DNA from: Bdellovibrionales bacterium | GTDB lineage: Bacteria; Bdellovibrionota; UBA1018; CAIMNF01 | DNA length: 64,000 bases | NCBI GenBank assembly: GCA_018266375.1 | Contig: JAFEAO010000001.1 | Span: 6,800-70,799, forward strand | Reading direction: 5' to 3' | Part shown: positions 8,029 through 44,695 of the stretch, in pieces | Layout: every line of letters begins with the position of its first letter | Position numbering within the stretch: the stretch's first letter is position 1 | Made by a program: the position numbers and the translations under genes | Notes under the pieces: generated by a model | The model's database searches: none | What the model was told of the DNA's origin: nothing | Seen by the model: only the letters and a program-made list of their open reading frames with translations

Positions 8029-8380
8029 CCCGCGAAACCGGGCAATTCCTTTCGTTTTAACGACGCTCGTAACTGAGCGGTGCGTCTCGTGAGAGTCGTA
8101 AGCAACACAGTCACGACCCAACTTTTGCATCCGTGCACGTCCCACACCACGGTTTTAAAATTCAGGCCAGATAAAAACGGAGTTCTCGACGGTACCAAAT
8201 GTCGTCACACCGCTTACAACGGCTTCGTCATAAATGTCGGTGATTCTCACAAGGTCCGATTCGGCCGCAGGTCGAATGATCATATACTTAGAGGATACGG
8301 CGAGATGACGCACGTCTTAACGCGAACGTCCTCCTGACGTTTTCGGTGACAATTTGGCCCATTCGAGGTCTAATACGGGC

Positions 8381-9712
8381 ATGAATCAAGCTCAAAAACA
8401 ACGCGTCGTGGTGACAGGGATCGGCATCCTGTCTCCGGTCGGAAACACGCGCGAAGAAACGTGGAAAAACATCGTCGCCGGTAAAAGCGGAATTCAAAAA
8501 ATCACTCTGTTTGACACGAAAGACTGTGCCGTGAACTTTGCAGGTGAGGTCAAAGGCTTTGACCCGACTGTCACACTCGCGCAGCCACTCTACCCACGCG
8601 GCAAGGATCAGGCCCCCCTCACTCAAGCAGTGAGTGCAAAAGACAAAAAAAAAATGGATCGCTTCATCCACTTCGCCCTCGCTGCGGGCATTGAAGCTTA
8701 CCAAGACTCCGGACTCGACGAGTACCGCAACTCCAGTCAGTGCGACATCAAACCAACCGACATCGGCATCAACATCGGTTGCGGCATGGGCGGCCTCCCG
8801 GGCATCGAAGAAACTTACAGCACACTTCTTGAGAAAGGCTTCCGCCGGATCACACCGTTTTTCATTCCCCAAGTCATTCCGAACTTGGCCGCAGGTCACA
8901 TGAGCATTCTCCTGAACACTCAGAACACAAACCTCTGTTCGGTATCGGCGTGCTCCTCAAGCGCGCACTCGATCGGCGAGTCCACTCGAACGATTCAGCG
9001 AGGGGATGCAAAGATCATGATCGCGGGCGGTACCGAAGCCGTAGTTTGCGCTCTCGGCATCGGCGGGTTCGCAGCCATGCGCGCTCTCTCGACTCGCAAC
9101 GAAGCACCCGAAAAAGCTTCTCGTCCGTTTGATAAGGATCGCGACGGGTTTGTCATGGGCGAAGGCTCGGCAGTGCTCGTGCTTGAAGAATACAATCATG
9201 CAAAAAAGCGCGGTGCCAAGATTTACGGCGAGATCGCGGGTTACGGCGCATCCTCGGACGCGCACCACATCACAGCTCCGCTCGAAGACGGAAACGGCGG
9301 ATTCCGCGCCATGGAACTCGCGCTGAAAGAATCGGGCTTGACCGCGAAAGACGTGGGCTATATCAACGCCCACGGCACCTCGACTCCGCTCGGAGATCCG
9401 CAGGAAGCAAAAGCGACGGCACGCTTGCTCGGCTCGCGCTCGGACCTGCACATCAGCTCCACAAAGTCGATGACCGGTCACTTGCTCGGCGCTGCCGGTG
9501 CAATCGAAGGCGCGTTCACCGCGCTTGCGATCCGCGACGGCATGATCCCCCCAACGATCAACTTAGATAGCTTGGATCCGGATTGCGCGGCTACGGGCCT
9601 CCATTTCACTCCAAACGTCGCAGTCGCCAAAAAAGATTTGAGAGCGGCATTCACCAACAGCTTCGGCTTCGGTGGAACCAACGTCTCGCTCCTCATTAAG
9701 AAAGTAGATTAA
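8381..9712 (+). CDS. fabF: 3-oxoacyl-ACP synthase II
   Basis: MNQAQKQRVVVTGIG N-terminus and active-site region with the conserved Cys and His residues (...ACSSSAHSIGE..., ...HGTSTPLGD..., ...GHLLGAAGA...). Start is chosen at the ATG with GAGGT 10 nt upstream. About 20 aa longer than typical because of an insert before KKKMDRF. Confidence 0.85.
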   Translation: MNQAQKQRVVVTGIGILSPVGNTREETWKNIVAGKSGIQKITLFDTKDCAVNFAGEVKGFDPTVTLAQPLYPRGKDQAPLTQAVSAKDKKKMDRFIHFALAAGIEAYQDSGLDEYRNSSQCDIKPTDIGINIGCGMGGLPGIEETYSTLLEKGFRRITPFFIPQVIPNLAAGHMSILLNTQNTNLCSVSACSSSAHSIGESTRTIQRGDAKIMIAGGTEAVVCALGIGGFAAMRALSTRNEAPEKASRPFDKDRDGFVMGEGSAVLVLEEYNHAKKRGAKIYGEIAGYGASSDAHHITAPLEDGNGGFRAMELALKESGLTAKDVGYINAHGTSTPLGDPQEAKATARLLGSRSDLHISSTKSMTGHLLGAAGAIEGAFTALAIRDGMIPPTINLDSLDPDCAATGLHFTPNVAVAKKDLRAAFTNSFGFGGTNVSLLIKKVD

Positions 9713-9714
9713 TC

Positions 9715-10164
9715 ATGAAGAAACTACTAATCGCAGCTGACCACGCCGGATACCCGCTCAAACAGGGGCTAATCAAACGTGCGGCTGAGATCGGGGTGAC
9801 CTTCGAAGACCTCGGTACACACTCGGCCGATAGCGTGGATTACCCCGATTACGCAAACCTCGCTTGCAACCGTCTGAGCGGCGGTGACGACGACATCGCG
9901 ATCCTCATCTGCGGGAGCGGCATCGGAATCTCGATTGCGGCCAACCGCCACGCTCACATCCGCGCTGCACTCTGCGAGACTGAAAACACAGCCGCCCGCG
10001 CTCGCTCGCACAACCACGCAAACGTGCTGTGCTTGGGCGCTCAAATCGTCAGCGAAGACCTCGCCCTCAAAATGATCAAGACTTTTTTATCCACGCCGAC
10101 CGACAATGGAGAACGCCACCTCCGTCGGATCAAAAAACTTTGTGGCATCGGAGCGAAGAAATGA
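9715..10164 (+). CDS. rpiB: Ribose-5-phosphate isomerase B (RpiB/LacAB family)
   Basis: [16 protein letters not shown]...[14 protein letters not shown], 149 aa. Confidence 0.85.
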
Positions 10165-11441
10165 AACCGAACGGGTTTAAAGCGCCTGCTTTCTCTCAAG
10201 ACCTGAAATCGACCGACCCAAAAGTATTTGAGTCCATTCAAAATGAAAGTCGGCGTGAAGAGGACGGTCTTGAGCTGATCGCTTCGGAGAACTATACTTC
10301 GAAAGCGGTACTGGAAGCACAAGGTTCGATCATGACCAACAAGTACGCCGAAGGCTATCCCGGCAAGCGTTACTACGGCGGGTGCATGTACGTTGACATC
10401 GCCGAGTCACTCGCGATTGAGCGTGCGTGTAACCTCTTCGGAGCCGAAGCCGCGAACGTCCAGCCGCACTCGGGATCAAGCGCCAACATGGGCGTGTACC
10501 TCTCGATCCTTCAACCCGGCGACACTATCCTCGGCATGGATCTCTCGCATGGCGGTCACCTCACTCACGGTAGTCCGGTCAACTTCTCAGGGAAATTGTT
10601 TCGTGCCACTCACTACGGATTAAACATGGAGACGCATCGTCTCGATTACGATATCATTCGCGACACGGCCAAGCGCGAGAAGCCTAAAATGATCGTCGCG
10701 GGCGCAAGCGCATACCCGCGTGTGATCGATTTCGTAAAATTCAAAGAGATCGCGGACGAGGTCGGCGCGAAGCTCGTCGTCGATATGGCCCACATCGCGG
10801 GTCTCGTAGCGGCGGGTCTCCATCCTTCTCCGATCCCGCATGCGGCATACACCACGACGACCACGCACAAAACCTTGCGCGGTCCTCGCGGCGGGATGAT
10901 CTTGTGCTCGCAAGAAAATTTGAAAGCGATCAACTCGCTCATCTTTCCGGGCATTCAAGGCGGACCGCTCATGCACGTGATCGCGGCTAAAGCAGTATCG
11001 TTTCAGGAAGCTCTTCAGCCGGAATTCAAGACTTATCAATCTCGTGTAGTGGAAAACGCAAAGGTGCTTGCGGAGAGCTTGATCGGCGCAGGTTTCGGCC
11101 TCGTCACCGGTGGCACCGACAACCACTTAATGCTCGTCGATCTCACTCAGTCGCTCGATAAAACCGTCACCGGCAAAGAGGCGGAAAGCTGGCTCGACCT
11201 CGCCGGCATCACCGTGAACAAAAACACGGTACCCAACGAGAAACGCTCGCCGTTTATCACGAGTGGGATCCGCATCGGTACTCCGGCGATGACCACTCGC
11301 GGGCTCGGCGTTGGCGAGATGAAAATGGTTGCCCAGTGGATCAAGTTCGCGCTGGAGTCCAAAGGCAATGCCGGCACGCTCGAAAAAATCCGCAGCGAAG
11401 TCAAAGAACTCTGCCAGCTGTTTCCGGTTTACGGACATTAA
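10161..11441 (+). CDS. glyA: Serine hydroxymethyltransferase
   Basis: [20 protein letters not shown] and [16 protein letters not shown], with the PLP-Lys region [14 protein letters not shown]. The start at ATG 10161 overlaps the rpiB stop (ATGA); the longer track ORF is an upstream in-frame extension. Confidence 0.9.
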
Positions 11442-14358: not shown

Positions 14359-15309
14359 ATGTCGGGCGACGGCGGAAGTAATGGCAACGATGGAAAAAAC
14401 AACGAACGGACTCAGATATTGGGTCTCGATCAGGAAACCATAAATCGCGAGCTACAGAAGGCTAAAGAACAGCCCGCCTGCCTCATCCTGATTCGCGGAA
14501 CCCCTCAAGGTCACCGCTACTTTATCACCGAAGATGAGATGACGATCGGCCGAGATCCGGCGGCCGACATTTCGATCGCCGATCAAACCATTTCTAAAAA
14601 ACACGCCAAGATCATCCGCGAAGGCGCCGTCATCAAGATCGAAGATTTAGGCTCGTCGAACGGAACACTCATCAACGGTAAAAAGCTCGAAGCCGGCAAC
14701 ACCGCTAAACTCGCAAAAGAGGACATGATCAAACTCGGGAACTCGATCGTGAAGTATCTTCCTGCGGGCGAGATCGAGATTATTTTCTACGGCAATTTGA
14801 ACCAAGCGGCGAACACCGATCCGCTCACGAGCATGTTCAATAAAGGTTATTTTTTGGAAGCGATCGATGCCGAGATCAAGCGCGCAAAAGCGCTATCGAC
14901 TCCACTTGCCCTCATCTTTTTCGATCTGGATCACTTCAAGAAGGTCAACGATACTTATGGCCACGATGGCGGTGACTTCGTACTGAAAGAATTTACCAAA
15001 GTGATCAAAAACTCCGGTGCAGTAAAACCGAAAGACGTCTTGGCTCGATACGGCGGCGAAGAGTTTTGCTTACTCATGCCGGGTACGACGATTCAAGATG
15101 CCGCGAAGTACGCCGAAACTCTGCGCGGTAAAACACAAACTCACGCATTTACCTACGAAAACAAGCGTATTCCGATCACCACGAGCCTCGGCGTCGCCGA
15201 GCTGACCTCGGATATGGAAACCGCGACCGACCTCATCAAAGCCGCCGACAAAGTGCTTTACGAGTCCAAACAAGGCGGCCGTAACCGCGTCACCGTCGCG
15301 CAGGCTTAA
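14359..15309 (+). CDS. FHA-domain diguanylate cyclase (FHA-GGDEF)
   Basis: N-terminal FHA signature (MTIGRDPAADISIAD..ISKKHAKI...DLGSSNGTLING). The C-terminal GGDEF domain has the RYGGEEF active site and DLDHFKKVND. Confidence 0.8.
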   Translation: MSGDGGSNGNDGKNNERTQILGLDQETINRELQKAKEQPACLILIRGTPQGHRYFITEDEMTIGRDPAADISIADQTISKKHAKIIREGAVIKIEDLGSSNGTLINGKKLEAGNTAKLAKEDMIKLGNSIVKYLPAGEIEIIFYGNLNQAANTDPLTSMFNKGYFLEAIDAEIKRAKALSTPLALIFFDLDHFKKVNDTYGHDGGDFVLKEFTKVIKNSGAVKPKDVLARYGGEEFCLLMPGTTIQDAAKYAETLRGKTQTHAFTYENKRIPITTSLGVAELTSDMETATDLIKAADKVLYESKQGGRNRVTVAQA

Positions 15310-18635: not shown

Positions 18636-18675
18636 CACGATATCAAAATAATCATGAAACAACCTTTATTCGCCG

Positions 18676-19452
18676 ATGAGAATGCGTATGAAGGTGAAAT
18701 CAAAAACCATTTTCCGCATTCCGAAAATTCATCCCGCACTCGCGGTGTGCTTCGCTCTTTGCAGTTTGAGCGCGCACGCGGATGAATTAAAAATTCTTTC
18801 CAACATTCCGGACTCGAGTGTCTTCGAAGTGAAGAGCGCTCCAGGTTCGAATGCTCCTTCTACAAACGCGGACGAAGAAGAAAAAACATTGCTGGGCAAA
18901 ACACCTCATACCATCAGCGATGCGAGTTCTTCAGACGTGCGCGTGATCAAAGTCGAAAAGCCGGGCTACACACCGGTCTATCTTCCGCTCTTCGGGCATT
19001 TCCGCGGCATAACCGTCATCCGTGTCTCCATGAAAAAAATCACCGACTGGATGCCGGAAGACTCCCAGAAAAAATCACAGGATCTCGCCGAGAGAATCGT
19101 CGACGAAATTTTTGCCGTACAAACCTTGCTCGATGCCAAACAGAGCAAGCAGGCGCTCGGGCTAGCTGAAACCCTTCATGCCAAGTACCCGGGCAGCGTC
19201 GCCGCGAACCTCGTCTACGCAAACGCACTTCTTTTAAACGGTGATTTCGGTCGCGCGCGTGGAATGTACATCGGAGCACTCGATCAAATTCCGGATTCGC
19301 GCAAGCAACTAAAAACTACACTCGCGCGAGTTCTCACCAAGCTGTCGGGACAAAAGCCGGTACCGGATGCGTTGGGTACGGCTGCGACTGCGCGAATGCC
19401 GGCATCCACCGTGCTTAAACCCGGCGTCCGCAAGAAAGGAGCGAAGAAATGA
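18676..19452 (+). CDS. Secreted protein with a PEGA-like beta-sandwich motif and a TPR-like helical region (258 aa)
   Basis: Signal peptide ...ALAVCFALCSLSAHA. VRVIKVEKPGYTPVYLPL resembles the PEGA domain. The C-terminal helical segment is ...HAKYPGSVAANLVYANALLLNGDFGRARGMYIGA.... Its stop overlaps the motA-like start (ATGA). Confidence 0.45.
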   Translation: MRMRMKVKSKTIFRIPKIHPALAVCFALCSLSAHADELKILSNIPDSSVFEVKSAPGSNAPSTNADEEEKTLLGKTPHTISDASSSDVRVIKVEKPGYTPVYLPLFGHFRGITVIRVSMKKITDWMPEDSQKKSQDLAERIVDEIFAVQTLLDAKQSKQALGLAETLHAKYPGSVAANLVYANALLLNGDFGRARGMYIGALDQIPDSRKQLKTTLARVLTKLSGQKPVPDALGTAATARMPASTVLKPGVRKKGAKK

Positions 19453-20180
19453 TCACCGTCATCTTAGGGATATTCTTCTCGGCATTCATCATCGTCGCAA
19501 GCTTCCTGCATTCCAAGGCCACGCTCCAAACTTTCTTGAACCCTGAGGGCCTGTTGATCGTGCTCGGCGGCACCTTCTCGATTTTTTTGATGACCGCTCA
19601 CTTCAAGGACGTCAAGCGCCTCACTCGCCTCATCTGGTTCATGGTGTTCAAGAAATCAAGTCGCAAAAAAGATGTGAAGCGGATCTTGAGCGAATGTACC
19701 GAGACCATCGAACGCGGTCGGATGCCTTCCGAAACCGGCCACGAATTCCTGGACCGTGCGCTCACCTGGCTCGGAGCCGGGCTTAAGGGCGAGGCGCTCG
19801 ACAAACTCCTCATCGACGGAGCCAAGCTTGAGATGGAGCGCAACCAACAAGCGATCCAGGTTATTTCAAACCTGGGTAAATACCCGCCCGCGCTCGGGAT
19901 GATCGGGACCGTATTCGGGATCATCGCGATTTTCTCGGGTCTAGGAATAGCTGAAGGGCAGAAGCACCTCGGAGTCAACCTCGCGTTCGCCATGACCGCG
20001 ACTCTTTACGGTTTGATCACATCGAACTTTATTATTACCCCGCTTGCGGAGTTTCTTTCGCAGATCGCCCAACACGACGAGCTCGAGTTATCGATGGTCG
20101 TTGAGACGGTCAAACTCTGGAGCGAAAAGGAAAGTCAGTTCTTTGTCGAAGAGCATCTGGAGCTATACGATGCTTCTTGA
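19449..20180 (+). CDS. MotA/PomA-family 4-TM proton-channel stator protein (243 aa)
   Basis: Four predicted TM segments with a long cytoplasmic loop between TM2 and TM3. Conserved C-terminal channel motifs ...PPALGMIGTVFGIIAIF... and ...AFAMTATLYGLITSNFIITPLAEF.... Confidence 0.7.
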   Translation: MITVILGIFFSAFIIVASFLHSKATLQTFLNPEGLLIVLGGTFSIFLMTAHFKDVKRLTRLIWFMVFKKSSRKKDVKRILSECTETIERGRMPSETGHEFLDRALTWLGAGLKGEALDKLLIDGAKLEMERNQQAIQVISNLGKYPPALGMIGTVFGIIAIFSGLGIAEGQKHLGVNLAFAMTATLYGLITSNFIITPLAEFLSQIAQHDELELSMVVETVKLWSEKESQFFVEEHLELYDAS

Positions 20181-20874
20181 ACGTAAAAAGCGTCATCGCC
20201 AGCACAACGAAGGATCTTGGGCGGTCAGTTATGTCGATATGCTCACTCTCCTTCTTTGTTTTTTCATCATCTTCTTCAATCAAAAGACGATCACCGGCGA
20301 TGACGACAACAGCGTTCTCAAAAAAGTCATGATGTCGATGAACCAGAACAGCCCTGCCCCTGCCGGCAGCGAAAGCGGTGGTGCTAATGGTACTGCCAAT
20401 CAAAAACAAAACGCCGATGTTAAAGAAACCAGCAACATGCTCGAACAGCTCAAAATCGCTTTCGACAAAAAAATCCCGGCTAAGATCAACGCTAACGCAA
20501 AATCGCTTGAAATCGAATACGACGACGTTTCGTTCTTCGATTCGGGTTCGACCAAGATTACTAAAGAAGGCCTCGAGTCCATCGATAAAATGATTCAAGT
20601 GCTCTATCCGTTCCATACGGCGCTTAAGATCACCGTTCAAGGCCATACCGACCCATCCAAAGTCCGCGGTAAACACAATCAGTTCACGGACAACTGGGAG
20701 TTGAGCGTGCTCCGCGCGACGTCGGTGTTGAAAATATTCTTGAAGTCCGGATTTGAACAGCAGTCTCTGTCGGCCGAGGGCTTCGCGGATACGCTCGTCA
20801 GAGAGCCTTCCGCCGAGAATCTCTCCAAGTACCGGAACATTACCCTTAGAATCGAACCGAAGGTGAACCCATGA
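20170..20874 (+). CDS. MotB-family stator protein with C-terminal OmpA-like peptidoglycan-binding domain (234 aa)
   Basis: N-terminal ...GSWAVSYVDMLTLLLCFFIIFF plug/TM region typical of MotB. The C-terminal ...ITVQGHTDPSKV...NWELSVLRATSVLKIF is an OmpA_C-like motif. It overlaps the motA-like 3' end. Confidence 0.7.
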   Translation: MLLERKKRHRQHNEGSWAVSYVDMLTLLLCFFIIFFNQKTITGDDDNSVLKKVMMSMNQNSPAPAGSESGGANGTANQKQNADVKETSNMLEQLKIAFDKKIPAKINANAKSLEIEYDDVSFFDSGSTKITKEGLESIDKMIQVLYPFHTALKITVQGHTDPSKVRGKHNQFTDNWELSVLRATSVLKIFLKSGFEQQSLSAEGFADTLVREPSAENLSKYRNITLRIEPKVNP

Positions 20875-22577
20875 ACTATCGATGCACGACTCTCACGATG
20901 TTGGCTCTACTGATGGCATCCATGATGCCGCAAAAGCAAGCGCAAGCCGCACCGGCCGACGAGCTGCTGGTCAATTCGTACCTTAACGAGCAAGCCGCGC
21001 GCCGGATGGAGCAGATCGTTCCGAAGGGCGAGTACACCATTCACGTCAACGCCATCCTTCGCAAAGCAGACAGCGAAGAGCACATCACTCTCCCTTTTGC
21101 GAGCACTCCGATCACGATGTCCGACGTCGTTGGCAAAGCCGGCGGATTGAATATCGAATCGCTCCTCGGGCGTATTCATCACTACGAAATCGATCTCTCG
21201 CTCACAAAAAACGTTCCGAACTCGGTCAAGGCTATGATGCAAAGTGCGCTTTATCAGCAATTTGCTCTGAAACCCGCGCGCGGAGATAGGCTTAACATAA
21301 TCGACCTTCCGGCGGAGTTCGAGCTACCTTGGATTTACGCTAATCAAGAGGCAAAAACGCGCGACAAAGAAAAGGATAAAGCTGCGTCAAGCGAAACCGA
21401 AGTTACTATGCCTTCCATGCAGTCCATCATCATGGTCGTCGGAGCGGTCGCATTCGCGATTATTCTTCTCGGCATCATCATCAGCTTCGTTTTCAGCCGT
21501 CACTCTAGCCGGATTTCCGAGTCTCTCCGGGAAGCGGCCGATCAAGTTCAAAGCATCGGTCCGACCAATAGCCCGATGGGAGCTTCGGCTCAGACCGCTG
21601 CTCAGGCTGAGAAAATGGAAACCGCGTCTTCGAGCGCGTTCTCGTCTCAAACGAGCCAAGAGTTTTGGGAATCGGTTCCGCCTGCCGCAATCGCGGCTTT
21701 CTGCGTGGACACCGGCGAGTCCAAAATTTACCGCGCGATCCCAGGCCAGCTCCTGAGCGTCGAGCTTCCGAACACTCTCGCCGATCAAGTCAAGACGCTC
21801 CTCCCTCAGGTGTTTTCCGAGCTTCACTTTGACGAGACTCAGGCACTGGTCGACACGGGCACGCTCCGCTCGGTGTTCAAAAAATATCAATCCGACTACA
21901 AAAAACTCGCACAAAACGAACTTGGCGCCGCTCTTCTCAGAATCGGTGTGAAGCAAGTGATGAAAAAGGTGGCGGAGAAAAAAGAAAGCGACACGCTTTT
22001 GATCATGACTCAGTTGACACCGGTTCGTAAAAACGACGTCATCCGTCAGCTTCCGACCGCGATGAAAGTCAAAATCGCCAAACTCACCCTCTCCGTCCGC
22101 CAAAGTCCGGATTGGAGCACACAAGAGAAAGCGATGGTCGAAGAATTTAAAACGATTCGTCCAAAGTTCGATCTCGATGCAGCCGGTGCGATCGAGATGA
22201 TTTCAAAATCACTTCTACAAGCCTCATCGTTCGAAGAAGACGAGCTTCTTTATCAAGAAGCTCAGAATAACCCGAACTTCCCTTACGTGAGTGCTCTCGA
22301 GGCCCTTGATGCGCTGGAATCCATCGAGTGGGAATCGATGAATTTGCAGGAAGTGGCGTTTGCGTTCTTCGGCTACTCGGAGAACGTCGTTGAGAGCGTC
22401 AAAGCAAAGTTCGCGGGTAAAAAACTCGAGTGGTTGCAGAGCTTTCTTAAAAAAGCCGTTCAGCAAAGCTACCTCTTCGATCAAGCCGAGATTCAAAATG
22501 CCCAGCACAACGTAAAAGAACGAGTCAAAGCCAAGAGAAACGTCGGAGCATCGGAGTCTTCCGCGAATGCATCGTAA
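20871..22577 (+). CDS. Bitopic membrane protein (568 aa): signal peptide, ~150-aa periplasmic domain, one TM, ~360-aa cytoplasmic helical domain
   Basis: MNYRCTTLTMLALLMASMMPQKQAQA signal, then TM IIMVVGAVAFAIILLGIIISFVF. The cytoplasmic part is helical with weak FliG-C/MgtE-N-like character (...LTPVRKNDVIRQLPTAMKVKIAKL...). Its ATG overlaps the motB-like stop (ATGA). Confidence 0.45.
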   Translation: MNYRCTTLTMLALLMASMMPQKQAQAAPADELLVNSYLNEQAARRMEQIVPKGEYTIHVNAILRKADSEEHITLPFASTPITMSDVVGKAGGLNIESLLGRIHHYEIDLSLTKNVPNSVKAMMQSALYQQFALKPARGDRLNIIDLPAEFELPWIYANQEAKTRDKEKDKAASSETEVTMPSMQSIIMVVGAVAFAIILLGIIISFVFSRHSSRISESLREAADQVQSIGPTNSPMGASAQTAAQAEKMETASSSAFSSQTSQEFWESVPPAAIAAFCVDTGESKIYRAIPGQLLSVELPNTLADQVKTLLPQVFSELHFDETQALVDTGTLRSVFKKYQSDYKKLAQNELGAALLRIGVKQVMKKVAEKKESDTLLIMTQLTPVRKNDVIRQLPTAMKVKIAKLTLSVRQSPDWSTQEKAMVEEFKTIRPKFDLDAAGAIEMISKSLLQASSFEEDELLYQEAQNNPNFPYVSALEALDALESIEWESMNLQEVAFAFFGYSENVVESVKAKFAGKKLEWLQSFLKKAVQQSYLFDQAEIQNAQHNVKERVKAKRNVGASESSANAS

Positions 22578-23133
22578 GATCTGGGGGGTTGCTGCATTAT
22601 GCAGTTTCCTTCTCGGGGTTTCGACATGGAGTGCCGAGCCGGAGTATCGTAGTTCGGTCGAAATTTTTGTCGGCGGATACTCGCTTCAGTCTTCGAGCGG
22701 CGCCGCTACCGCGATCGGATCGCTACTCGTTAACTACGGGTACAATATCGACAAGCATTTCAGAGCCGGGTTTGCCTATCAAAACATTCTTTCCAGCTCA
22801 ACCGGCCTGGGCTCGTCGGTCTCAGGTTTCGATCTATCCGGGCAATATTGCTTTTTTTCTTGCGTGACCTTGCGGACCGACGCAGCCGCTGTCGCCATCG
22901 TGCAAGAGCACGCTAAATTTGGTTTGGCAGCCGGATTCGGCCTCTCTCAACGCAGCTTTCAACTCGCGACTCAATCTGTCGGTTTTGCCGGGCCAATGTT
23001 TAAAGCGACAGGAAATTACTTTTGGAAAGATCAGATCAAGCTCCTCCTCGGCGTTCAATATTCCAGTCTGGTAAATGGATCAAACTCGCTTAAGTTTATA
23101 ACGTACTCCGTAGGTTTGGGAGTCGATTGGTAG
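22567..23133 (+). CDS. Small outer-membrane beta-barrel protein (188 aa)
   Basis: Signal peptide MHRKIWGVAALCSFLLGVSTWSA, amphipathic beta-strand pattern, and a C-terminal ...GLGVDW aromatic terminus. Confidence 0.5.
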   Translation: MHRKIWGVAALCSFLLGVSTWSAEPEYRSSVEIFVGGYSLQSSSGAATAIGSLLVNYGYNIDKHFRAGFAYQNILSSSTGLGSSVSGFDLSGQYCFFSCVTLRTDAAAVAIVQEHAKFGLAAGFGLSQRSFQLATQSVGFAGPMFKATGNYFWKDQIKLLLGVQYSSLVNGSNSLKFITYSVGLGVDW

Positions 23134-23324
23134 GCCAGAATTAATTCTGCCTCAAAATCCCATAAATGACTTTGATTGCAATCTTTAAATTCAGGTCAAC
23201 ACTGACACACCTGACATTGTTAAATTTCTATTAGATAATAAAAAGAATTATCAGGGGGAATGTCGGTGCCGTGCGGAGCAACCTTTTTTAATCCTTTCCG
23301 CTAATTATGCCGATAAAGAATTGA

Positions 23325-26300
23325 ATGAGAGTACTCTCAGCCATTGCCATTATCATTCTCTCCGGCTGCTCCGGTGTCTCTAACCAAGACATGGGCAATC
23401 TCATCGGCGTTTCGGTCACCGGTAACAATCAACCTACTTCCACCCCGACCGGCATCACTCTCAACATCGTGGGCGGTAATAATCAAACCAGCGCACCAGG
23501 TACGACCTTCACCGATCCGCTTCGCGTGCAACTTCTCGATGACGGCGTTCCGCAGGCAAACAAAAACGTAAACTTCACGGTGACCAACGGCATGGGTATT
23601 TCGTTCAGCGCCTCTGGCGGCGTGACCGACGCCTCCGGCATGGTGCAAACCTATGTCACCGCTTCGAACGCGGGCAACATTACCATTCGTGCGTCTTACC
23701 TCTCTTACGGCGCGGACTTCTCGCTTTCGGTCACCAACCAAAGCAACGCCACTCTTACAAAGATTTCGGGCGACTCACAAACCGCAACGGTCGGCACGGT
23801 CCTCTCACAACCGTTGATCGTTGAAACGCGTGATTCTGGAACCGGCTCACCGCTCTCGAATATTCTCGTGCGTTTTACCGTTTCAGGCGGGAACGGACGC
23901 TTGAACTCCGCTTCAAGCAGTATGACCGTGGCAAGTGATGGTACAGGCCGTGCGTCGGTAAACTTCGAAGTGGGTACGCTTGCCGGTGCAAACACCGTGG
24001 TTGCATCCATCGTGAGCGTCCCTGCTCAAAACACTACTTTTAGCTCGACCGGTACCGTTCCTACCAACAGTGTCATCAACTTCGCACAAAGTACGGTGAC
24101 CGCCGCAACAGGCACGCTTGTCGCCGACGGATCTCAAACGACGACTCTCACCCTTACGACTCGCGATGTATACGGCAACACGATTCCAAGCGGCGGCAAA
24201 ACAGTTGCATTTACCGTGAATACCGGAACACTCCTTGGCTCAGTGAACGATCTAGGCAACGGGACCTACACCCAAATCGTGCGCGCGCCGGTCGCAATGC
24301 CGCCCAATGCGATTAGCGCAAGCGGTACGGTAAACGGAAGCGCTCTCACCAGTACTGCAGCAAACATTTCTCTCCTCTCCGGTTCGATCAGCTTAACGAA
24401 CTCAACCATCACCAGCGCTGCAAGCTCGATGGTGGCCGATGGCATCGCTACCGTACTTGTCACGGTGACGCTTAAAGACTCTCTCGGAAACCAACTCAGC
24501 ACCGGCGGACAAAACGTGGTTCTCACCTCGAGCATGGGCACCTTGATCGGCTCGGTGACCGACGTCGGAAACGGAACCTACACTCAGACATTAAAATCGT
24601 CGAGCTCGACCGGCACTGCAATCGTGTCCGCCACTGTCGGTGGATCGCCGCTCAGCACCTCCAAAAGTATTGCTTTCGTGGCCGGACCGCCGGACGCCAC
24701 CAAAGCGGTGATCGTCGCGAACCCGACTTCATTGCCGCCAAACGGTTCTTCAGCAAGCGTGATCACCGTTCAACTTCGTGACGCCAACAACAATCCATGC
24801 ACCAATGCCACTGGACATACCGTCACCTTGACTAAATCCACGGGTGGAACTTGGATGGGCTCAGGTACCAACGTTGTCGCAGCAACGGACAACGCCGACG
24901 GAACATATTCGGCGATCCTCATCGCCGCAGCAACTCTTGGCAATAGCACGATCACCGGGACCGACAACGCCGCCGTTCTCTCTAAAACGGCAACCGTCTA
25001 CTTTACTAACGGTGCTTACGGTCCGGATGTCAGCAATTCAACCATTCAGGTCATCGGCTCTAACCCGACTGCTGCGGATGGCGTGAGTACTGTTGTCGTT
25101 AAAGTCAGCTTGCGTGATTCTTTCAACAGTCCAATTTTGACGGGCGGGTCGGCCGTCACGATTACTACAAATTCGGGAACGCTTCTGGGTTCGGTCACCG
25201 ACAACGGCGACGGCACTTATCAGCAAACGCTCCGCGCGCCAAGCTCGGCTGCAATCGCTACTGTCGGCGCGAGCGTCGACGGCAACACATTAGTTCGCAC
25301 GGCGAACGTCAGCTTCTATGGTTCGATCAGTTTAACGACTTCAACGATCACCGCCGCTCCGGGATCGATCGTCGCGAACGGAACTTCAACGACCGTACTC
25401 TATCTCAATGCCAAGGATTCAAACGGCACCGAGATTCCGGTTGGAGGTGAAGCCACGATCGTCTTCGGCACTACCGGAGGGACCTTGGTCGGATCCGTTA
25501 CGGATAACGGCAACGGAACTTACTCGCAGGTTTTACGCTCAGCCGCTTCCGCGCTCACCGCAAGTGTTGGCGCAACTCGTTCAGGAGTTCCATTTTCCAA
25601 TACCGTGAACGTCGAATTCTACACTGCCAACAACCGGGCTGGTTTGACGATCGACTGCTCGAACATCGCGACTTATCAAAACACCACGCTACTCGTCGAC
25701 AACGGTACCCTCACGATGAACTCGACCGGTTCGGCCGGCACTTGCCCCTCGTCATTTACTTTTAACGGCATCATTCTCCAAAACAACGCCATCCTCACCC
25801 ACACCGCTGCTACGACGACTCAGGAGTATGGACTCGAGTTGACCGCAAATTACATTACGATCGACGCGACCAGCACGATCGATGTTTCGGCAAAAGGTTA
25901 TCCATTTTCGCCAACTAACAACATGATCCGTACGCAAGGCAACACCGATGTGAGTTCGGGTGCAAGTATGCAGGTCGGCGGCTCGTATGGCGGACAAGGT
26001 GCTTCGAGCAGCGGCGCCGGAACCAACGTCAACCTCACCTACGGTAGCATCTTCGAGCCTTTCGATCTCGGATCGAGCGGAGGACGCTACTCCACTCATC
26101 AATCCGGTTCGGGCGGCGGCAAGGTAAAACTCACCGTTACCGGTCCTTCGGGTATTCTGAACTCCGGATCCATCAAAGCCGAAGGCGGCAAAGTCCCGAA
26201 CACCCAGCTCAGCGGAGCCGGAAGCGGCGGCAGCATCTGGATCAATACCACCAAACTTGCCGGCACCGGCACGATCAACGCCAACGGAGCTGGAACGAAC

Positions 26301-29300
26301 TTCGACGGAACCCTTCGCTACGCGGGCAGTGGCGGGCGGATCGCGATCTATTACGGCGATTTCAGCGATTTAACAAATAACTTCTCGTATCCGACGAACG
26401 CGCTCGCAAATATCACTGCACGAGGCGGGATCGGTGTCGGCAGCTGCGCCGCCGGCGCAGGCACCGTCTATCTGAAGTCGACCGCGCAGACCTACGGTGA
26501 TTTGATCATCGACAACAAAGGTGTCGCGACTTGCACTTCAACGAATGGAACCATCATTAATCAACCTGCAATTCCTACGAACGAAGCCATTACCGCTACT
26601 ACCCTCACCCGCACAAACTCCTTCGGTGACAGCTACAATACCGCCGCATCTCCATATAAAGGCTGGTACGTCGATCCGAATACCACTCAAAACGCGACTC
26701 CGAAAAAATCGGACAATAGTCTTTTCAAAATTACGGGCGCAACCGCGAGCGTCCTCACCACAACCGGCGGCAATATGACTTCGGTCGCGACTGTAGCTGA
26801 CCCGGCAGAGTTAGTATTGGTTTTTGACAATTTCGAACAAGGTGACAAAACTCAAATTTCTGTGGGAAACTTGCGTATCCTCTCCTACGGCGGAGACTTG
26901 CGTTCAACTGACAATATTACCGTTACGCTCACAGATGCCCTTCCACCTAAAGGCATTGAATTTGTCGGAGCCCAAAACATTACTTTCAACCTAAATTCGT
27001 GGACTTTGCCATCATTTTTAAATGAAGACTTTGGAACCGCGAGTTTGACAGTTTCAGGAGGAAACTTTAACTTCGGAACAATTAACGCTAGAAACTTCAT
27101 TGCATCCGCTGCAAATTTGTTCGGCACTAAATTGCGAATAGCGGGAAACGTTAGCTTGAGTTCTGTAAACGCAACTTTTAACCAGCTTAAAGGAAACTTT
27201 GCAATTCAAGCCGACGGGGCGATTGAATTTTTAAATGCTACTACAATCACACAAACAGCTACCACATCTACGGTTGAACATTCCCTGGAAATCTTCGGCT
27301 CAAGTATAAATTTAGCCACTGGCTGCACATTATCTGCAAGAGGTAAAGGCTACCCCTCAGTAGTCGCTACTAAAAATCGTGTTTTTGGAAATGTGGATGC
27401 GACCGTGTCCTGGACAGGAGCTGCAGCCACGGGCGCCGGAGGCACCCATGGAGGTCGAGGAGGCGCTCAAGGAACCACATATTATCCAGCGGAAGTTTGG
27501 GGAAATTATCGTGATCCTTACACATCAGGAGGGAGCGGCGGGACCTCAAATGGATCTTCGGGACCCGGTGGCGGCATTATTCGAATCAGCACATCAGGTG
27601 CGGGGCCAATTACGATTTCCGGAACAGTAGACGCCCGAGCGACAGACGTAAATGCCGACAATGGGGCTGGAGGAAGCATTTATTTGAATGGGGGGCTCGT
27701 AACCGGCTCAGGAACACTCGACGCACGGGGGGGGACGAATTCCGGTGGAATGAACTACATGGGAGGAGGAGGAGGACGAATTGCAGTATATTACACTTCA
27801 TTAGGTGGAAATTTCACTTACCCTACAAACGCGATCGCAAATATTAAAGCCTGGGGTGGCACCTCAAATGCGAATACTTCTTACTGGGCCGCTGCAGGAA
27901 CAATATTTATGAAGGCTTCATCTGAGAACTATGGACGGCTGATTGTGAATAATAATAATAGCCCATTAGTTGATTCGAGCGGGCGCCGAACTGTCATCAA
28001 TTTTCCGGCCATAGTATCCAGTTCGGGATTGGTTTACGATTCCGGCACAGACACAACAACATTGACGTCCGTCGGTACCTTCAATGAACGTTATGGCCCT
28101 TCAAATGCGTATATTGGCATGTATCTTAATCCGAATACTGCCCAAAATGCCACAACAGCAATTCAGGATGATGCTTTATTTCCAATTATCGGCCAAACTG
28201 CGAACACGTTGATCGCACAAGGAAACGCAACAAGCGTGGGAACTTCTGGAAACATTTTTCAGCTTAATTCAAAACTGGATGAACTAAGAGTAATTGGAAA
28301 AGGAATTTTAGAAATCAATAACGGTGTGATCCTAACTAATAACCTTGTCGTGATCAATGGGCAAATCGGCGGCACAGGATCAGTCGAAGTCGCTCAACCT
28401 TCTTTGTCGGATTTAACCCTCACTCCAAATGGCGGGACAGTTCGGCTAAACGGCCTCAGCAATATTGGCATACTGAATTTGCTACCCGGTACTTACATTG
28501 TTCCATCGGGTGGGACGATTTCCACCAACGGCAATTTAACTATGTCTGGCGCAACGATCTCGGGATCAAATATCAATTATAATGTGATAGGCGACTTCAC
28601 AGCCACTTCATCGACTCTCGGGACAATTGGAACCATCACGACAACGGGAGATATGAATCTTACTTCGACAACGGGTACGGCCAATGGAAACATCTCGATC
28701 GGGGGGGCGTCGGTCCTAAGCGGAGCAACTCTGGCCCAGACTACGGGTAATTTCAGTGTCGGGACCAATCTCACGGTAGGACCAGTCAGTACACTCACCC
28801 AATCACAATACAACGCGACACTCACTGTGCCCGGCAATTTTTTCATCACCACAAACTCATCTGTTACAGCAAATTATCCTACTATCGCCGGAAACCTGAG
28901 TGTAGACCAAGTTTCAACTCTCTCTAGCGGCAATGCCGTACTGACTCCATTTACGACCTACAACACTGTTTCAAATTTAAACGTGACCGGAGATACCACC
29001 GTTACAAATGGTTCTACAATTTATTCAAACGTTACAAATTCGACGACTGAGTACTACCTCTATTTAACGACTACAAACTTAAATATTGATAATACCTCGT
29101 CCATCAGCGCAGACAACCGCGGCTATCGAAACGTCGTCTACAGAACATTCAGAAGTCTCGGAAACACCGACTACCTCCCAATGAACAGCGCAGGAACAGG
29201 CTACCTAACTACTTCTGAAACGGCGTCCGCAGGAGCTTATGGCGGTGCTGGTGGCGGCGCCGGCGGGCCTCATCGATCCAATCGCCCTTATGGTTCGTTT

Positions 29301-30272
29301 TATAATCCGATTTATTTAGGATCGAGCGGATCATGTTGGGGCGCAAGTGCGGGTTGTCCCGATGCGGCAGGCGGTGCGGTCCGGTTAAAGGTTCCGGGCA
29401 CAGCAACCATTAACGGAATCATCACCGCAGGCGGATCACAACAAAGCCAATCGGCCGGATCAGGAGGCAGCATCTACCTTGATGTCGGGACACTCACGGG
29501 GACGGGTACCGGGATCATTCGAGCAAACGGACCGCAGACTGCGACCGTGTATGGTGGAGGGGGAGGCGGAAGAATCGCTATTTACTACAATACATTTGGC
29601 GGACAATATGCCACTCCATCGACTTTAATCAGTAGTCTTCAGGCCTACGGTGGCAACCCCAGTGGAACAGCTGACGCCCGTGGAAGCGCTGGAACGATTT
29701 ACCTGAAAGCAAGTTCGCAAACATACGGTGATCTGATCATTAACAATAACGGAGCCGACAGCAATTTGACGACCTATTTCTTTCCGTTGGGATATGCCAC
29801 GCCGACATCGTCAGTTGTGACTTCGACTACTCTCACATCGCCCCTTGGTTTTTACAACTTGTACGGAGTTCTTGATTTTTTCAAAGGTTACTTCTTGAAT
29901 CCAAACGTTGCGCAAAACGCGACTGCCAAACTATCTGACGATACCGTGTTTTCAGTGACTGGCAATGATAACGCCACTTTAACTACCGCAACGACTGGCA
30001 TGGACAGCATCGCGAGCGCCGGTAACACCTTTGCTCTGCAGTTGATTTTTGATAACTTGGAAATCCGAAATCGTGGCAAATTGAATGCCACAGCTGTCAA
30101 CGTCCGTGTTTTGGACGGTGACCTTGGTTCAAACAACACTACCACCTTCTCGCAGGATGGGGGTCTATGGGGCCGCACTGTTGATCTCGGCCCGGGTGTG
30201 ACCTGGAGCAATACAGCCAACGCATCCGGCACCATCACCACAAAGTGCGCCGCGAACTTTCCTTGTCCTTAA
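23325..30272 (+). CDS. Giant surface lipoprotein (2315 aa): N-terminal Big-like (invasin/intimin-type Ig) domain array, then three diverged copies of a ~480-600-aa Gly-rich beta-helix-like module
   Basis: Lipobox ILSGCSG. At least five Ig-like repeats share (T/S)GTL(L/I/V)GSVTD(N/V/L)GNGTY(T/S/Q)Q(T/I/V)L(R/K). A three-fold module carries the motifs GSGG...RIA(I/V)YY...FxYPTNAxANIxAxGG, AGAGT(V/I)YLK(S/A)(T/S)xQTYGDLII(D/N)N, Y(V/L/F)(D/N)PNT(T/A)QNAT and D(N/D)xxF..(T/I)G. Confidence 0.8.
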   Translation: MRVLSAIAIIILSGCSGVSNQDMGNLIGVSVTGNNQPTSTPTGITLNIVGGNNQTSAPGTTFTDPLRVQLLDDGVPQANKNVNFTVTNGMGISFSASGGVTDASGMVQTYVTASNAGNITIRASYLSYGADFSLSVTNQSNATLTKISGDSQTATVGTVLSQPLIVETRDSGTGSPLSNILVRFTVSGGNGRLNSASSSMTVASDGTGRASVNFEVGTLAGANTVVASIVSVPAQNTTFSSTGTVPTNSVINFAQSTVTAATGTLVADGSQTTTLTLTTRDVYGNTIPSGGKTVAFTVNTGTLLGSVNDLGNGTYTQIVRAPVAMPPNAISASGTVNGSALTSTAANISLLSGSISLTNSTITSAASSMVADGIATVLVTVTLKDSLGNQLSTGGQNVVLTSSMGTLIGSVTDVGNGTYTQTLKSSSSTGTAIVSATVGGSPLSTSKSIAFVAGPPDATKAVIVANPTSLPPNGSSASVITVQLRDANNNPCTNATGHTVTLTKSTGGTWMGSGTNVVAATDNADGTYSAILIAAATLGNSTITGTDNAAVLSKTATVYFTNGAYGPDVSNSTIQVIGSNPTAADGVSTVVVKVSLRDSFNSPILTGGSAVTITTNSGTLLGSVTDNGDGTYQQTLRAPSSAAIATVGASVDGNTLVRTANVSFYGSISLTTSTITAAPGSIVANGTSTTVLYLNAKDSNGTEIPVGGEATIVFGTTGGTLVGSVTDNGNGTYSQVLRSAASALTASVGATRSGVPFSNTVNVEFYTANNRAGLTIDCSNIATYQNTTLLVDNGTLTMNSTGSAGTCPSSFTFNGIILQNNAILTHTAATTTQEYGLELTANYITIDATSTIDVSAKGYPFSPTNNMIRTQGNTDVSSGASMQVGGSYGGQGASSSGAGTNVNLTYGSIFEPFDLGSSGGRYSTHQSGSGGGKVKLTVTGPSGILNSGSIKAEGGKVPNTQLSGAGSGGSIWINTTKLAGTGTINANGAGTNFDGTLRYAGSGGRIAIYYGDFSDLTNNFSYPTNALANITARGGIGVGSCAAGAGTVYLKSTAQTYGDLIIDNKGVATCTSTNGTIINQPAIPTNEAITATTLTRTNSFGDSYNTAASPYKGWYVDPNTTQNATPKKSDNSLFKITGATASVLTTTGGNMTSVATVADPAELVLVFDNFEQGDKTQISVGNLRILSYGGDLRSTDNITVTLTDALPPKGIEFVGAQNITFNLNSWTLPSFLNEDFGTASLTVSGGNFNFGTINARNFIASAANLFGTKLRIAGNVSLSSVNATFNQLKGNFAIQADGAIEFLNATTITQTATTSTVEHSLEIFGSSINLATGCTLSARGKGYPSVVATKNRVFGNVDATVSWTGAAATGAGGTHGGRGGAQGTTYYPAEVWGNYRDPYTSGGSGGTSNGSSGPGGGIIRISTSGAGPITISGTVDARATDVNADNGAGGSIYLNGGLVTGSGTLDARGGTNSGGMNYMGGGGGRIAVYYTSLGGNFTYPTNAIANIKAWGGTSNANTSYWAAAGTIFMKASSENYGRLIVNNNNSPLVDSSGRRTVINFPAIVSSSGLVYDSGTDTTTLTSVGTFNERYGPSNAYIGMYLNPNTAQNATTAIQDDALFPIIGQTANTLIAQGNATSVGTSGNIFQLNSKLDELRVIGKGILEINNGVILTNNLVVINGQIGGTGSVEVAQPSLSDLTLTPNGGTVRLNGLSNIGILNLLPGTYIVPSGGTISTNGNLTMSGATISGSNINYNVIGDFTATSSTLGTIGTITTTGDMNLTSTTGTANGNISIGGASVLSGATLAQTTGNFSVGTNLTVGPVSTLTQSQYNATLTVPGNFFITTNSSVTANYPTIAGNLSVDQVSTLSSGNAVLTPFTTYNTVSNLNVTGDTTVTNGSTIYSNVTNSTTEYYLYLTTTNLNIDNTSSISADNRGYRNVVYRTFRSLGNTDYLPMNSAGTGYLTTSETASAGAYGGAGGGAGGPHRSNRPYGSFYNPIYLGSSGSCWGASAGCPDAAGGAVRLKVPGTATINGIITAGGSQQSQSAGSGGSIYLDVGTLTGTGTGIIRANGPQTATVYGGGGGGRIAIYYNTFGGQYATPSTLISSLQAYGGNPSGTADARGSAGTIYLKASSQTYGDLIINNNGADSNLTTYFFPLGYATPTSSVVTSTTLTSPLGFYNLYGVLDFFKGYFLNPNVAQNATAKLSDDTVFSVTGNDNATLTTATTGMDSIASAGNTFALQLIFDNLEIRNRGKLNATAVNVRVLDGDLGSNNTTTFSQDGGLWGRTVDLGPGVTWSNTANASGTITTKCAANFPCP

Positions 30273-38478: not shown

Positions 38479-38714
38479 TTAAGTAACAGAGTAAAACTGT
38501 CAACTTTGGTCGTGGATGACCATTATAGGTGCAGGTATGAATTCACGGATGAAAAAGCAGGTCGCACGTCGTTTTTATCTTTCTCCATCCATTTGTAACC
38601 TCTTGATAACGCATTGCACAATGCGTCAAAAGTCCTTTTCCTACTTAATCCAAGTGACCGGAAAGCCGATAGGTATCCGTACCACTCGCAGTGGCTCAAC
38701 CAGGAGACTGAAAG

Positions 38715-39578
38715 ATGAATAAGTTCATGAAAACAGCGGCAATACTCCTCGTCCTCGCCTTCGTCACGTTTACCGTGTATCGCTTAGGAACTAAAAAATC
38801 GGGTGACGTGTCCACGACCGAAGTCACGCAACTCAACGCTCAAAAAGATGCAAACGGCAATCTCGTTGATCAAAACGGCCACGAGATGGCCGGCGTCGAC
38901 ACCAACGCGGGTGCAGTGAACGCAACTTCGGGCAATGGCGGCGAGCAAAATACTCAAAGCACCGAGAACGGCGAAAAGGGCGATGCCGTTCCTAAAGTCA
39001 AATTCGGCGCGGCTCAAGCCCCGAAAGCGGAAGGCTCATTGAGCGACAAGCTCAATCAACCTACCTTTACTCAGACCAAGCCCGAGAGCAACTGCTTTTC
39101 GTTTGAATACAAACACGAAAAAGAAGCGTTAAACAAAGACATCGAAGACTTCTTGGATTACTCGAACGCATTCCCGATCTTTCACGACAAAGTGACTGAA
39201 AAATCGATCTGCGTGAAAGTGAACGACAAAGCGGTTCCTTTCAAAGTTTCAAAATACAAAAATCAAAAAGAAATCGTCGTCGGATCGGTTGTCGGTCCGG
39301 AAGCGACGATCAAAGTCTCTTACTGCGTGAACACCAGCAAGTGTAAAGAAGCTTGCGCGGTGAAATCGAACCGTTTCATGGACGATTTAATGTCCGACAC
39401 GGGTGACGAAAACGAATTTAAAGAGTCTTGGGGAGACGCTAAAGCACAAAAGAAAGCCCTTCAAGCGGGCGTAAAAGAATTCAGAAAAGTGGCCAGCGAA
39501 AACCGCGATTTGCAAAAGCAGTCGACGATTCGCAGCTGGGACACGGTTCAGAAAAACGAATGGGTCTGTAATAAGTAA
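38715..39578 (+). CDS. Membrane-anchored/secreted Cys-containing hypothetical protein (287 aa), first gene of the operon
   Basis: N-terminal hydrophobic anchor MNKFMKTAAILLVLAFVTFTVY, a Gly/Asn/Gln-rich linker and six Cys in the C-terminal half. RBS AGGAG. Confidence 0.5.
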   Translation: MNKFMKTAAILLVLAFVTFTVYRLGTKKSGDVSTTEVTQLNAQKDANGNLVDQNGHEMAGVDTNAGAVNATSGNGGEQNTQSTENGEKGDAVPKVKFGAAQAPKAEGSLSDKLNQPTFTQTKPESNCFSFEYKHEKEALNKDIEDFLDYSNAFPIFHDKVTEKSICVKVNDKAVPFKVSKYKNQKEIVVGSVVGPEATIKVSYCVNTSKCKEACAVKSNRFMDDLMSDTGDENEFKESWGDAKAQKKALQAGVKEFRKVASENRDLQKQSTIRSWDTVQKNEWVCNK

Positions 39579-39602
39579 TCTAAGGAATAAGGAGAAACTA
39601 AA

Positions 39603-41220: not shown

Positions 41221-41234
41221 AAGGAGAAGTTGCG

Positions 41235-44453: not shown

Positions 44454-44695
44454 AATGGATTTTAATCGTCGGCATGATGTTGATCACTTCAGAGGTCCAG
44501 GCGCAGAACAGCAAGCGCTCGACCGTACTCAATTTTGAAGACGAGATGGTGGAAGGGATCAACCGGAAACCTCTCGATTCCGTGAACCAGATCAGTGAAC
44601 GGAATAAAAAAGGAAAATCCCACCTCTACAAAAAACGCGCCGGTTTCGCTGACCGCGACCAAATCCTCATGAATGAGTTGAGGCTGCAACCATGA
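44450..44695 (+). CDS. Small secreted protein (81 aa)
   Basis: RBS AGGAGTG, signal peptide MKWILIVGMMLITSEVQA, ATGA overlaps on both sides. Confidence 0.45.
   Translation: MKWILIVGMMLITSEVQAQNSKRSTVLNFEDEMVEGINRKPLDSVNQISERNKKGKSHLYKKRAGFADRDQILMNELRLQP

Follow-up and report, generated by a model that had tools for sequence, protein, structure and literature searches.

A module of five genes that, on a slight balance of likelihood, encodes a self-contained and autonomous rotor-stator device derived from the flagellar motor was found in a Bdellovibrionales bacterium. The window analysed is a stretch of 64,000 nucleotides from a metagenome-assembled genome (MAG; positions 6,800 to 70,799 of the forward strand of contig JAFEAO010000001.1), and the module lies on its + strand at 18676-23133; all positions given below are those of the window. 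The five products are a secreted protein with tetratricopeptide repeats (TPR), here called T, a MotA-like and a MotB-like stator protein, a bitopic protein of 568 residues, called X, and a small outer-membrane beta-barrel, called Y. The cytoplasmic half of X resembles the flagellar rotor protein FliG and its periplasmic half the ring-building motif (RBM) 3 of FliF, so that X is a candidate single-chain rotor for the stator encoded beside it.

The original prediction had described five joined genes, and all of these open reading frames (ORFs) were confirmed. They are T (18676-19452, 258 residues), MotA (19449-20180, 243 residues), MotB (20170-20874, 234 residues), X (20871-22577, annotated as hypothetical protein JST80_00145) and Y (22567-23133, 188 residues), and their successive stop and start codons overlap by 4, 11, 4 and 11 nt. 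For MotB, the ORF list gives a TTG start at 20044; the ATG at 20170 yields a protein that matches Pfam MotB_plug from residue 6. The start of T is slightly uncertain between the ATG codons at 18676, 18682 and 18688, of which the last may be the true one.

The conservation of the gene set was followed through MotA, whose relatives comprise one family at 34-72% identity and a further, more distant tier at about 30%. One genome of each GTDB species was scanned for the MotA motifs KYPPALGM and AM[TA][AS]TLYGL, which returned 80 loci, almost all of them from MAGs of Bdellovibrionota (Bdellovibrionales, Bacteriovoracia, Oligoflexia and others). ORFs were called in the loci and then searched with one hidden Markov model per component. 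In 54 of the 82 non-redundant loci T, MotA, X and Y were all present, and a partial set was found in 10, several of which are truncated by contig ends. MotA stood alone in 17 loci, mainly of Actinomycetes and Silvanigrellaceae, with different neighbours. The usual order was T-A-B-X-Y with overlaps of 4 nt, and the flanking genes were unrelated between the loci. In 5 loci T-X-Y was divergent from MotA-MotB, in 1 locus the order was T-A-B-Y-X, and some genomes had two or three copies of the module. That the set is kept through rearranged orders is strong evidence for a functional linkage of its genes. The five genes are one conserved Bdellovibrionota module and are inherited together. A coincidental adjacency, in which a flagellar motAB pair merely lies beside unrelated passengers, could appeal only to the missing Pfam annotation of X. 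It is already refuted by the co-occurrence of the genes in 54 loci with differing flanks and rearranged orders and by the overlapping start and stop codons, and its probability is negligible.

X starts with a signal peptide or first transmembrane (TM) segment. Some 155 residues in the periplasm come next, and a single TM helix separates them from some 360 residues in the cytoplasm. Residues 28-150 (20952-21320) correspond to a predicted periplasmic alpha/beta domain of the FliF RBM3 type. The TM helix was read from the sequence at residues 184-207 (21420-21491); in the AlphaFold2 (AF2) model the helix extends over 184-227. Basic residues follow this helix, which places the C-terminal part in the cytoplasm. 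There, a disordered linker leads to an all-helical, FliG-like region at residues 262-567 (21654-22571), in which residues about 350-430 resemble FliG_M/MgtE_N with an LTPxKR motif and residues 455-560 resemble FliG_C.

Word-based homologue searches with X, as a single sequence or as a profile, retrieved X itself only, and with an exhaustive HMMER search no more than 39 cluster representatives were obtained, which all have the same length and architecture. The relatives that were looked up are all unnamed hypothetical proteins from metagenomes. Three profiles were built: A1 from 24 members (clade 1), A3 from 37 sequences of more distant modules (clade 2) and A6 from the merged 68 sequences. Homology between A1 and A3 extends over 464 columns (hhalign probability 99.3, E 9e-21). 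When A1 was compared with the PDB, only three matches had an E of 10 or less, all of them to FliG or FliF and in colinear order: positions 359-443 on residues 111-197 of Aquifex FliG, and positions 23-155 and 131-211 on a FliF chain and on residues 425-495 of a flagellar M-ring protein, respectively (chains 9yh6_Oj, 12dr). With A6, four structures of the Thermotoga maritima FliG C-domain came on top (1.3-2.2e-4). The faint FliG-C/MgtE-N character that had been ascribed to the 568-residue protein thus became significant at the family level, where Pfam FliG_C was found in three clade-2 members (best 1.5e-7) and MgtE_N in a clade-1 member (6.4e-6); YscJ_FliF_C matched 1 of the 24 clade-1 members at 6e-4.

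A FliG-like fold had also been proposed as something that structure prediction could reveal. AF2 with the single sequence was uninformative (pLDDT 40), and with the A1 alignment it gave a model of pLDDT 78, in which most folded regions reached 85-96. The model was searched against the PDB with Foldseek, and the top 27 matches were all FliG or FliF RBM3 rings, the next one having an E of at least 0.4. The FliG matches included the full-length Aquifex protein over 326 columns, structures of the M and C domains and C-ring subunits, and the FliG_C structure 1qc7 was matched with a TM-score of 0.59 and a probability of 0.98. For the FliF matches the probability was 0.80-1.00 (E 1e-3 to 9e-2), and the RBM3 rings matched with a probability of 1.00 had TM-scores of 0.42-0.46 (E 6e-3 to 6e-2). 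The predicted structure therefore agrees with the proposed fold.

When aligned with E. coli FliG by hhalign, residues 455-556 of X fell on residues 230-316, from the MFxF region to the torque helix. The segment SFEEDE takes the place of the MFxF region and is conserved in 93-99% of the members, FGYSE corresponds to ALKGA, and the two lysines K517/K518 stand at the position of FliG R281 and are conserved in 84-93%. With E. coli FliF, residues 30-63 aligned on 234-267 (E 0.065) and residues 115-149 on 396-430 (E 0.013). These two segments are both halves of RBM3 and include the RGD before TM2; conserved motifs of the domain in X are LPL (P75) and RGD (residues 137-139). A short insert takes the place of the FliF beta-collar. 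X has neither RBM1 and RBM2 nor the long beta-collar; its periplasmic part, of about 125-155 residues, is a single alpha/beta domain. Unlike the soluble FliG that binds to FliF, X is anchored in the membrane, with the FliG-like region and the RBM/TM part in one covalent chain. Each match is modest, and the independent lines agree: by profiles and model alike, X is read as a FliF(RBM3)-TM-FliG-like fusion, the FliF part of the argument being weaker than the FliG part. The original prediction had seen in X a partner of the stator. With a periplasmic half that looks like FliF RBM3, X becomes a candidate rotor.

The stator proteins were as described in the original prediction, a MotA-like channel with 4 TM helices (Pfam MotA_ExbB 8e-18, MotA_N 7e-6) and a MotB-like protein with a peptidoglycan-binding domain of the OmpA type (MotB_plug 8.9e-11 at residues 6-42, OmpA 2e-13 at residues 122-222). 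In MotB, Asp23 lies within the TM segment SYVDMLTLL, followed by the plug and a low-complexity linker, and the channel Asp is invariant in the family. MotA has the invariant motifs KYPPALGMxGTVxGI in TM3, with P147 and T154, and AMTATLYGL..N...P in TM4, with T185 and P198. The two prolines align with P151 and P199 of PomA and are both invariant. The features of a flagellar stator that are present are therefore the A subunit with 4 TM helices and the TM3 and TM4 prolines, and the B subunit with the TM Asp, the plug and the OmpA domain.

The best PDB match of the MotA family profile was Vibrio PomA (2e-27), followed by other flagellar MotAs. With the NCBIfam PomA/MotA models MotA scored about 90 bits at cut-offs of 237-394 (PomA 90.6, cut-off 341), and with the MotD/MotB models MotB scored 70-102 bits, also below the cut-offs (MotD 102.5, cut-off 283). 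Since these equivalog scores are under the curated cut-offs, the pair is MotA/MotB-like and not a recognised flagellar stator. The TolQ and ExbB models gave only 16-26 bits. The TolQ/ExbD-type cluster at 38.7-49 kb of the window, from which the stator had been claimed to be distinct, is a separate one. A motor of the TolQR/ExbBD/AglRS type was rejected on the 4-TM A subunit, on the plug and OmpA domain of MotB and on the position of TolQ as the outgroup of the MotA tree. In this tree all MotAs of the module were in one clade with two sub-clades. The sister group comprised PomA, actinomycete MotAs and a second MotA from the locus L052, and E. coli MotA branched outside both. The tree is taken only as showing that the module MotAs appear as a distinct clade within the flagellar-type radiation, nearest to PomA. 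The pair is thus of the flagellar (PomA/MotA) type yet in a clade of its own, and the genes downstream of it are conserved partners and no passengers.

MotA T154 (19908-19910) and T185 (20001-20003) correspond to T158 and T186 of PomA and are invariant in the module MotAs; E. coli MotA has an alanine at the first and a threonine at the second position. These threonines, which we take to line the Na+ site of PomAB, make Na+ the candidate, and Na+ may be the coupling ion of the module.

Match to the ZorB models of PADLOC (5.6e-15) was found for MotB, and a Zorya-like anti-phage defence built on a MotAB-like channel was considered for this reason. The match is of the generic MotB kind, no ZorA match was found, and MotA is without the long C-terminal tail. 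T, X and Y had no PADLOC match, and no nuclease, helicase or ZorC/D/ZorE partner was present; the spread is vertical within one phylum and FliA-type promoters are found. The Zorya identity was rejected, as PADLOC matched MotB only, at the level of ZorB, and none of the other four proteins, and a Zorya-like role is very improbable.

Several points speak against a rotor-stator device. X of the window alone had no significant match in Pfam or NCBIfam, and the FliF/FliG case is built on family profiles and on an AF2 model from a 24-sequence alignment with a pTM of 0.40; the single FliF matches are weak (E 0.01-0.4). The MotA tree was made by neighbour joining, rooted with TolQ, with few references and without support values. 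The TM2-TM3 loop of MotA, which carries R90/E98 in E. coli MotA and R88/E96 in PomA, is shorter by 5-8 residues, and no charge in it is conserved among the 58 module MotAs. On the X side, S524/F525 stand at the positions of FliG D288/D289 and are not acidic, and the FliM-binding EHPQR is missing, the aligned segment reading KKESDTLLIMTQLTPVRK with no EHPQ. The classic torque interface is absent, and therefore any coupling must use other contacts. The motAB pairs of BALOs (Bdellovibrio and similar bacteria) are treated as flagellar stators (PMC11323537), and our survey for flagellar genes covered the 64-kb window and the inspected locus neighbourhoods. Ring formation, stator docking and rotation are predictions. 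The conserved charges of the module MotAs are K144, E201, E228 and E235, and the changed charge pattern on MotA and X fits a dedicated pair that would have no cross-talk to the flagellar rotor.

The absence of the canonical torque charges from both MotA and X can also be understood if nothing rotates. X could act on MotAB, by gating or sequestering it, as a static platform or regulator in the membrane, and the module could be a peptidoglycan-anchored tether, an ion-leak sensor or a signalling device with a logic like that of Tol-Pal or of stator-based surface sensing. The module has no axle and no obvious output component. A further hint is the C-terminal -AA, conserved on MotA (49/79) and X (39/60) and found on 0/58 T and 0/56 Y proteins and on 6/594 background ORFs of the loci L001-L087, which would agree with regulated turnover. 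On the cytoplasmic ends of MotA and X it may serve as a degron like that of ssrA or as a binding tail common to both. In the window, MotA ends in -DAS (20172-20180) and X in -NAS (22566-22574); the actinomycete MotAs finish in -KKAA. However, a platform or sensor hardly explains why an RBM domain and a complete FliG-like region are kept, with the torque-helix Lys in 84-93% and SFEEDE in 93-99% of the members, and all known 5:2 MotA-type complexes are generally held to be rotary (PMC12505986). We consider a non-rotary role rather improbable.

We then looked for flagellar genes around the module. None were found across the whole 64-kb window, in line with the claim that the block is not part of a flagellar operon, and none were adjacent to the module in the loci whose neighbours were listed or scanned. 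The sole motility-type neighbour across all loci was the second, PomA-like MotAB pair in L052, from Bdellovibrionota bacterium FG-1, which lies at 9657-11287 of that locus, convergent to and directly beside the module. The FG-1 genome has two modules (L052 and L070). FG-1 has not been cultured; it is a predator-like, magnetotactic cell that bears one thick flagellum at its pole (PMC13200544).

These observations bear on the possibility that the module serves the ordinary polar, sheathed flagellum as an accessory. MotA and MotB would then be an extra stator set, comparable to the multiple motAB pairs of Bdellovibrio, and T and Y a periplasmic scaffold like MotX/MotY, PflA/PflB or FlcA. X would bring these stators to the basal body and arrange them around it, as an adaptor or a docking ring. 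The PomA/MotA type of the stator, in place of the TolQ type, would be expected from this, and the flagellated Bdellovibrionota have 1-4 motAB pairs that are regarded as flagellar (PMC11323537). The flagellum of FG-1 and its two modules are compatible with it (PMC13200544), as are the FliA-type promoters, which drive flagellar genes too. TPR proteins that act as stator scaffolds are generally known from Vibrio, Campylobacter and Borrelia. The accessory role is opposed by the rotor parts that X duplicates, which touch the membrane and the stator and are needless for a scaffold, and by the lack of any flagellar gene beside the module. Two or three copies of the module in some genomes, the separate PomA-like MotAB pair beside the module in L052 and a MotA without the equivalents of R90/E98 that are needed to drive a canonical FliG also argue against it. 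We regard this role as unlikely, but as a serious contender.

The original prediction had called T a PEGA/TPR-like secreted protein. The signal peptide and the C-terminal TPR repeats stood up (Pfam TPR_19 1.3e-7), whereas the PEGA part of its beta-rich N-terminal domain was weakly supported. In the T family (alignment A4) TPR_19 was found in 23/44 and PEGA in 2/44 members (0.002), and all members had a signal peptide or a lipobox. The T family profile matched only generic TPR structures in the PDB, and a match to NCBIfam FlcA_CTERM was negligible (0.06). Y had a weak match to Pfam OMP_b-brl (0.011). Its family profile (A5) matched Ail/OmpX at 0.004 and NspA at 0.047, Y has a signal peptide and an aromatic residue at its C-terminus, and the C-termini of the family finish in F or W. 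From these features Y is probably an 8-stranded barrel of the OmpX/Ail/NspA kind. Neighbourhood conservation, profiles and structure prediction together uphold the proposed coupling of the stator to dedicated partners in the periplasm, the cytoplasm and the outer membrane.

The FliA consensus of B. bacteriovorus, TTAAG-N16-CCGATA, is found in about two-thirds of the attack-phase promoters, which include those of many non-flagellar genes (PMC3627812). We scanned for this consensus with at most 1 mismatch per box and found a FliA-type promoter just upstream of T in 22/58 loci, compared with 3/58 control windows. The sigma-28 -10 box alone was present in 6/58 loci, where about 3.8 were expected, and was not significant. 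The distance between the -10 box and the start codon is often no more than about 8-20 nt, which points to very short leaders. In the window, the region 18672-18688 holds a -10-like GCCGATGA that overlaps the first ATG of T (18676), and no matching -35 box was found for it. mutL and miaA lie upstream of the module at a gap of 40 nt, and without a matching -35 box upstream of T the module may here be read through from mutL-miaA. A scan for generic sigma-70 promoters and terminators inside the block gave nothing better than shuffled sequences, and an Rfam scan of 17-24.5 kb gave no match. The promoters of the FliA type suggest an attack-phase expression of the module.

Near-consensus FliA sites (TTAAG-N15-17-CCGATA) were present in the window at 23288-23315, 38645-38671 and 56999-57025, where they precede the gene for a giant lipoprotein, the cluster of the TolQ/ExbD type and the gene at 57147, respectively. 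The first of them forms, with the lipoprotein gene at 23325-30272 on the + strand, a variable sixth element (23288-30272) that is not part of the core. This gene starts 192 nt after Y and encodes a predicted lipoprotein of 2315 residues with the lipobox LSGC, five Invasin_D3/Big_1 domains (Pfam) and, after these, long repetitive modules rich in Gly, Ser and Thr. In about 10 other loci, from both clades, the gene after Y likewise encodes a large lipoprotein, with Ig-like, fn3 or propeller domains; among these loci are L001, L011, L032, L045, L048, L061, L063, L066 and L067.

In the rotor-stator device that we favour, X would oligomerise via its RBM domain to a ring in the inner membrane, which would hold a ring of FliG-like domains beneath the membrane. 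MotA5B2 units anchored to the peptidoglycan would dock on this ring, and the ion flow would push the FliG_C-like domain, in which the conserved K517/K518 hold the place of FliG R281. T and Y could scaffold the stators in the manner of MotX/MotY or PflA/PflB, or could relay the movement to the outer membrane. Expression would fall into the motile attack phase, and a candidate output, suggested by the recurrent adjacent genes, would be the moving or tensioning of the large Ig-like lipoproteins. A role in surface motility or envelope remodelling, as the original prediction envisaged, is speculative. The module could not build or turn a flagellum of its own, because it lacks the export gate, rod, hook, FliM/FliN and RBM1-2. 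The fuller picture is that of a flagellum-independent rotary machine with a single-chain FliF/FliG-like ring, PomAB-like stators and a connection to the outer membrane through the TPR protein and the barrel. Such a machine would be produced in the attack phase and would power a surface process such as the moving or tensioning of large Ig-like lipoproteins in gliding, prey attachment or entry. We put this forward tentatively, as plausible at somewhat less than even confidence.

Compared with the core of the flagellar motor (PomAB/MotAB, FliF, FliG), the module shares the 4-TM A subunit with its prolines, the B subunit with Asp, plug and OmpA domain, and in X a putative RBM3-like domain with a TM helix, a FliG-like region with a FliG_C-like domain and a basic residue at R281. 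It differs in that the FliF-like and FliG-like parts are in one polypeptide, that X is without RBM1, RBM2, the long beta-collar, EHPQR and D288/D289 and MotA without R90/E98, and that genes for FliM/FliN, the export apparatus, rod, hook and filament are missing from the module, which lies in a non-flagellar context and in several copies in some genomes. The functions of MS-ring and FliG have been combined in a single chain in engineered FliF-FliG fusions of Salmonella, and these are reported to assemble rings (PMC6079021). Whereas those were made in the laboratory from complete FliF and FliG and belong to a flagellum, X is natural, much shorter and divergent and has its own stator genes.

Vibrio MotX/MotY of the T-ring, Campylobacter PflA/PflB and Borrelia FlcA are secreted proteins of the TPR/Sel1 type that are encoded with or act on MotB/PomB, and T could have a similar role, Y being the outer-membrane anchor. 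In contrast to T, they are flagellar parts, and the similarity of T to them is no more than that of generic TPR. TolQR, ExbBD, AglRQS of gliding, GldLM of the T9SS and gliding, ZorAB and SiiAB resemble the module as ion-driven MotA-type complexes that work on a non-flagellar task of the envelope, and GldLM with SprB and SiiAB with SiiE act with large surface adhesins, while here genes for large Ig-like lipoproteins often follow the module. The A subunits of these non-flagellar 5:2 motors are, however, of the TolQ/ExbB, GldL or ZorA type, and we know of none with a FliF- or FliG-like partner.

To our knowledge, MotA/PomA-type stators and FliG are thought to work inside flagella only. In the literature searched, we found no description of the module, of a natural FliF-FliG-like fusion or of a FliG-like non-flagellar protein. 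If our reading is true, no earlier case is known in which the rotor-stator pair of the flagellum has been re-used outside it. The torque-generating core could then exist and evolve as a separable unit, which bears on the assembly of the flagellar motor from parts, and five proteins would offer a minimal system for a rotor-stator coupling with a rewired interface. Bacterial predators go through steps that need force and are unexplained, and for these it would be a candidate; if flagellum-independent rotation were shown, it could be a new kind of machine. The flagellar motAB pairs that are counted in BALO genomes may include non-flagellar ones. A recent classification of stators equates this structural type ('FIT') with flagellar function (PMC12505986).

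Some further observations were made in other loci. B. bacteriovorus HD100 was absent from the MotA relatives and the hits of the scan, which suggests that it lacks the module but is no proof, and the literature searched for HD100 genes adjoining motAB held nothing relevant. In L045 three successive ORFs (214, 193 and 89 residues; 7378-8884) take the place of one X gene, which is either a pseudogene or the result of assembly frameshifts. MotAs with the same TM3/TM4 motifs are followed by MotB and then by a protein of about 355 residues in MAGs of Actinomycetes/Ilumatobacteraceae (L071, L075, L080, L083, L084, L087). In Silvanigrellaceae (L055, L059, L072) the neighbours are a protein of about 600 residues and then one of about 420 residues. 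The protein of about 600 residues downstream of the Silvanigrellaceae MotAB was considered as an X homologue and rejected, as it is unrelated to X. These actinomycete and Silvanigrellaceae loci may be further uncharacterised stator modules.

Elsewhere in the window, a diguanylate cyclase with FHA and GGDEF domains is encoded at 14359-15309, 3 kb upstream of the module, and is not kept beside it in other loci. The separate cluster at 38715-49009 encodes a TolQ/ExbB-type protein (39603-40259), an ExbD/TolR protein (40699-41220), an outer-membrane protein (48176-49009) and two TPR proteins of 1072 and 597 residues, and is probably an Agl/Glt-like gliding or a Tol-like system.

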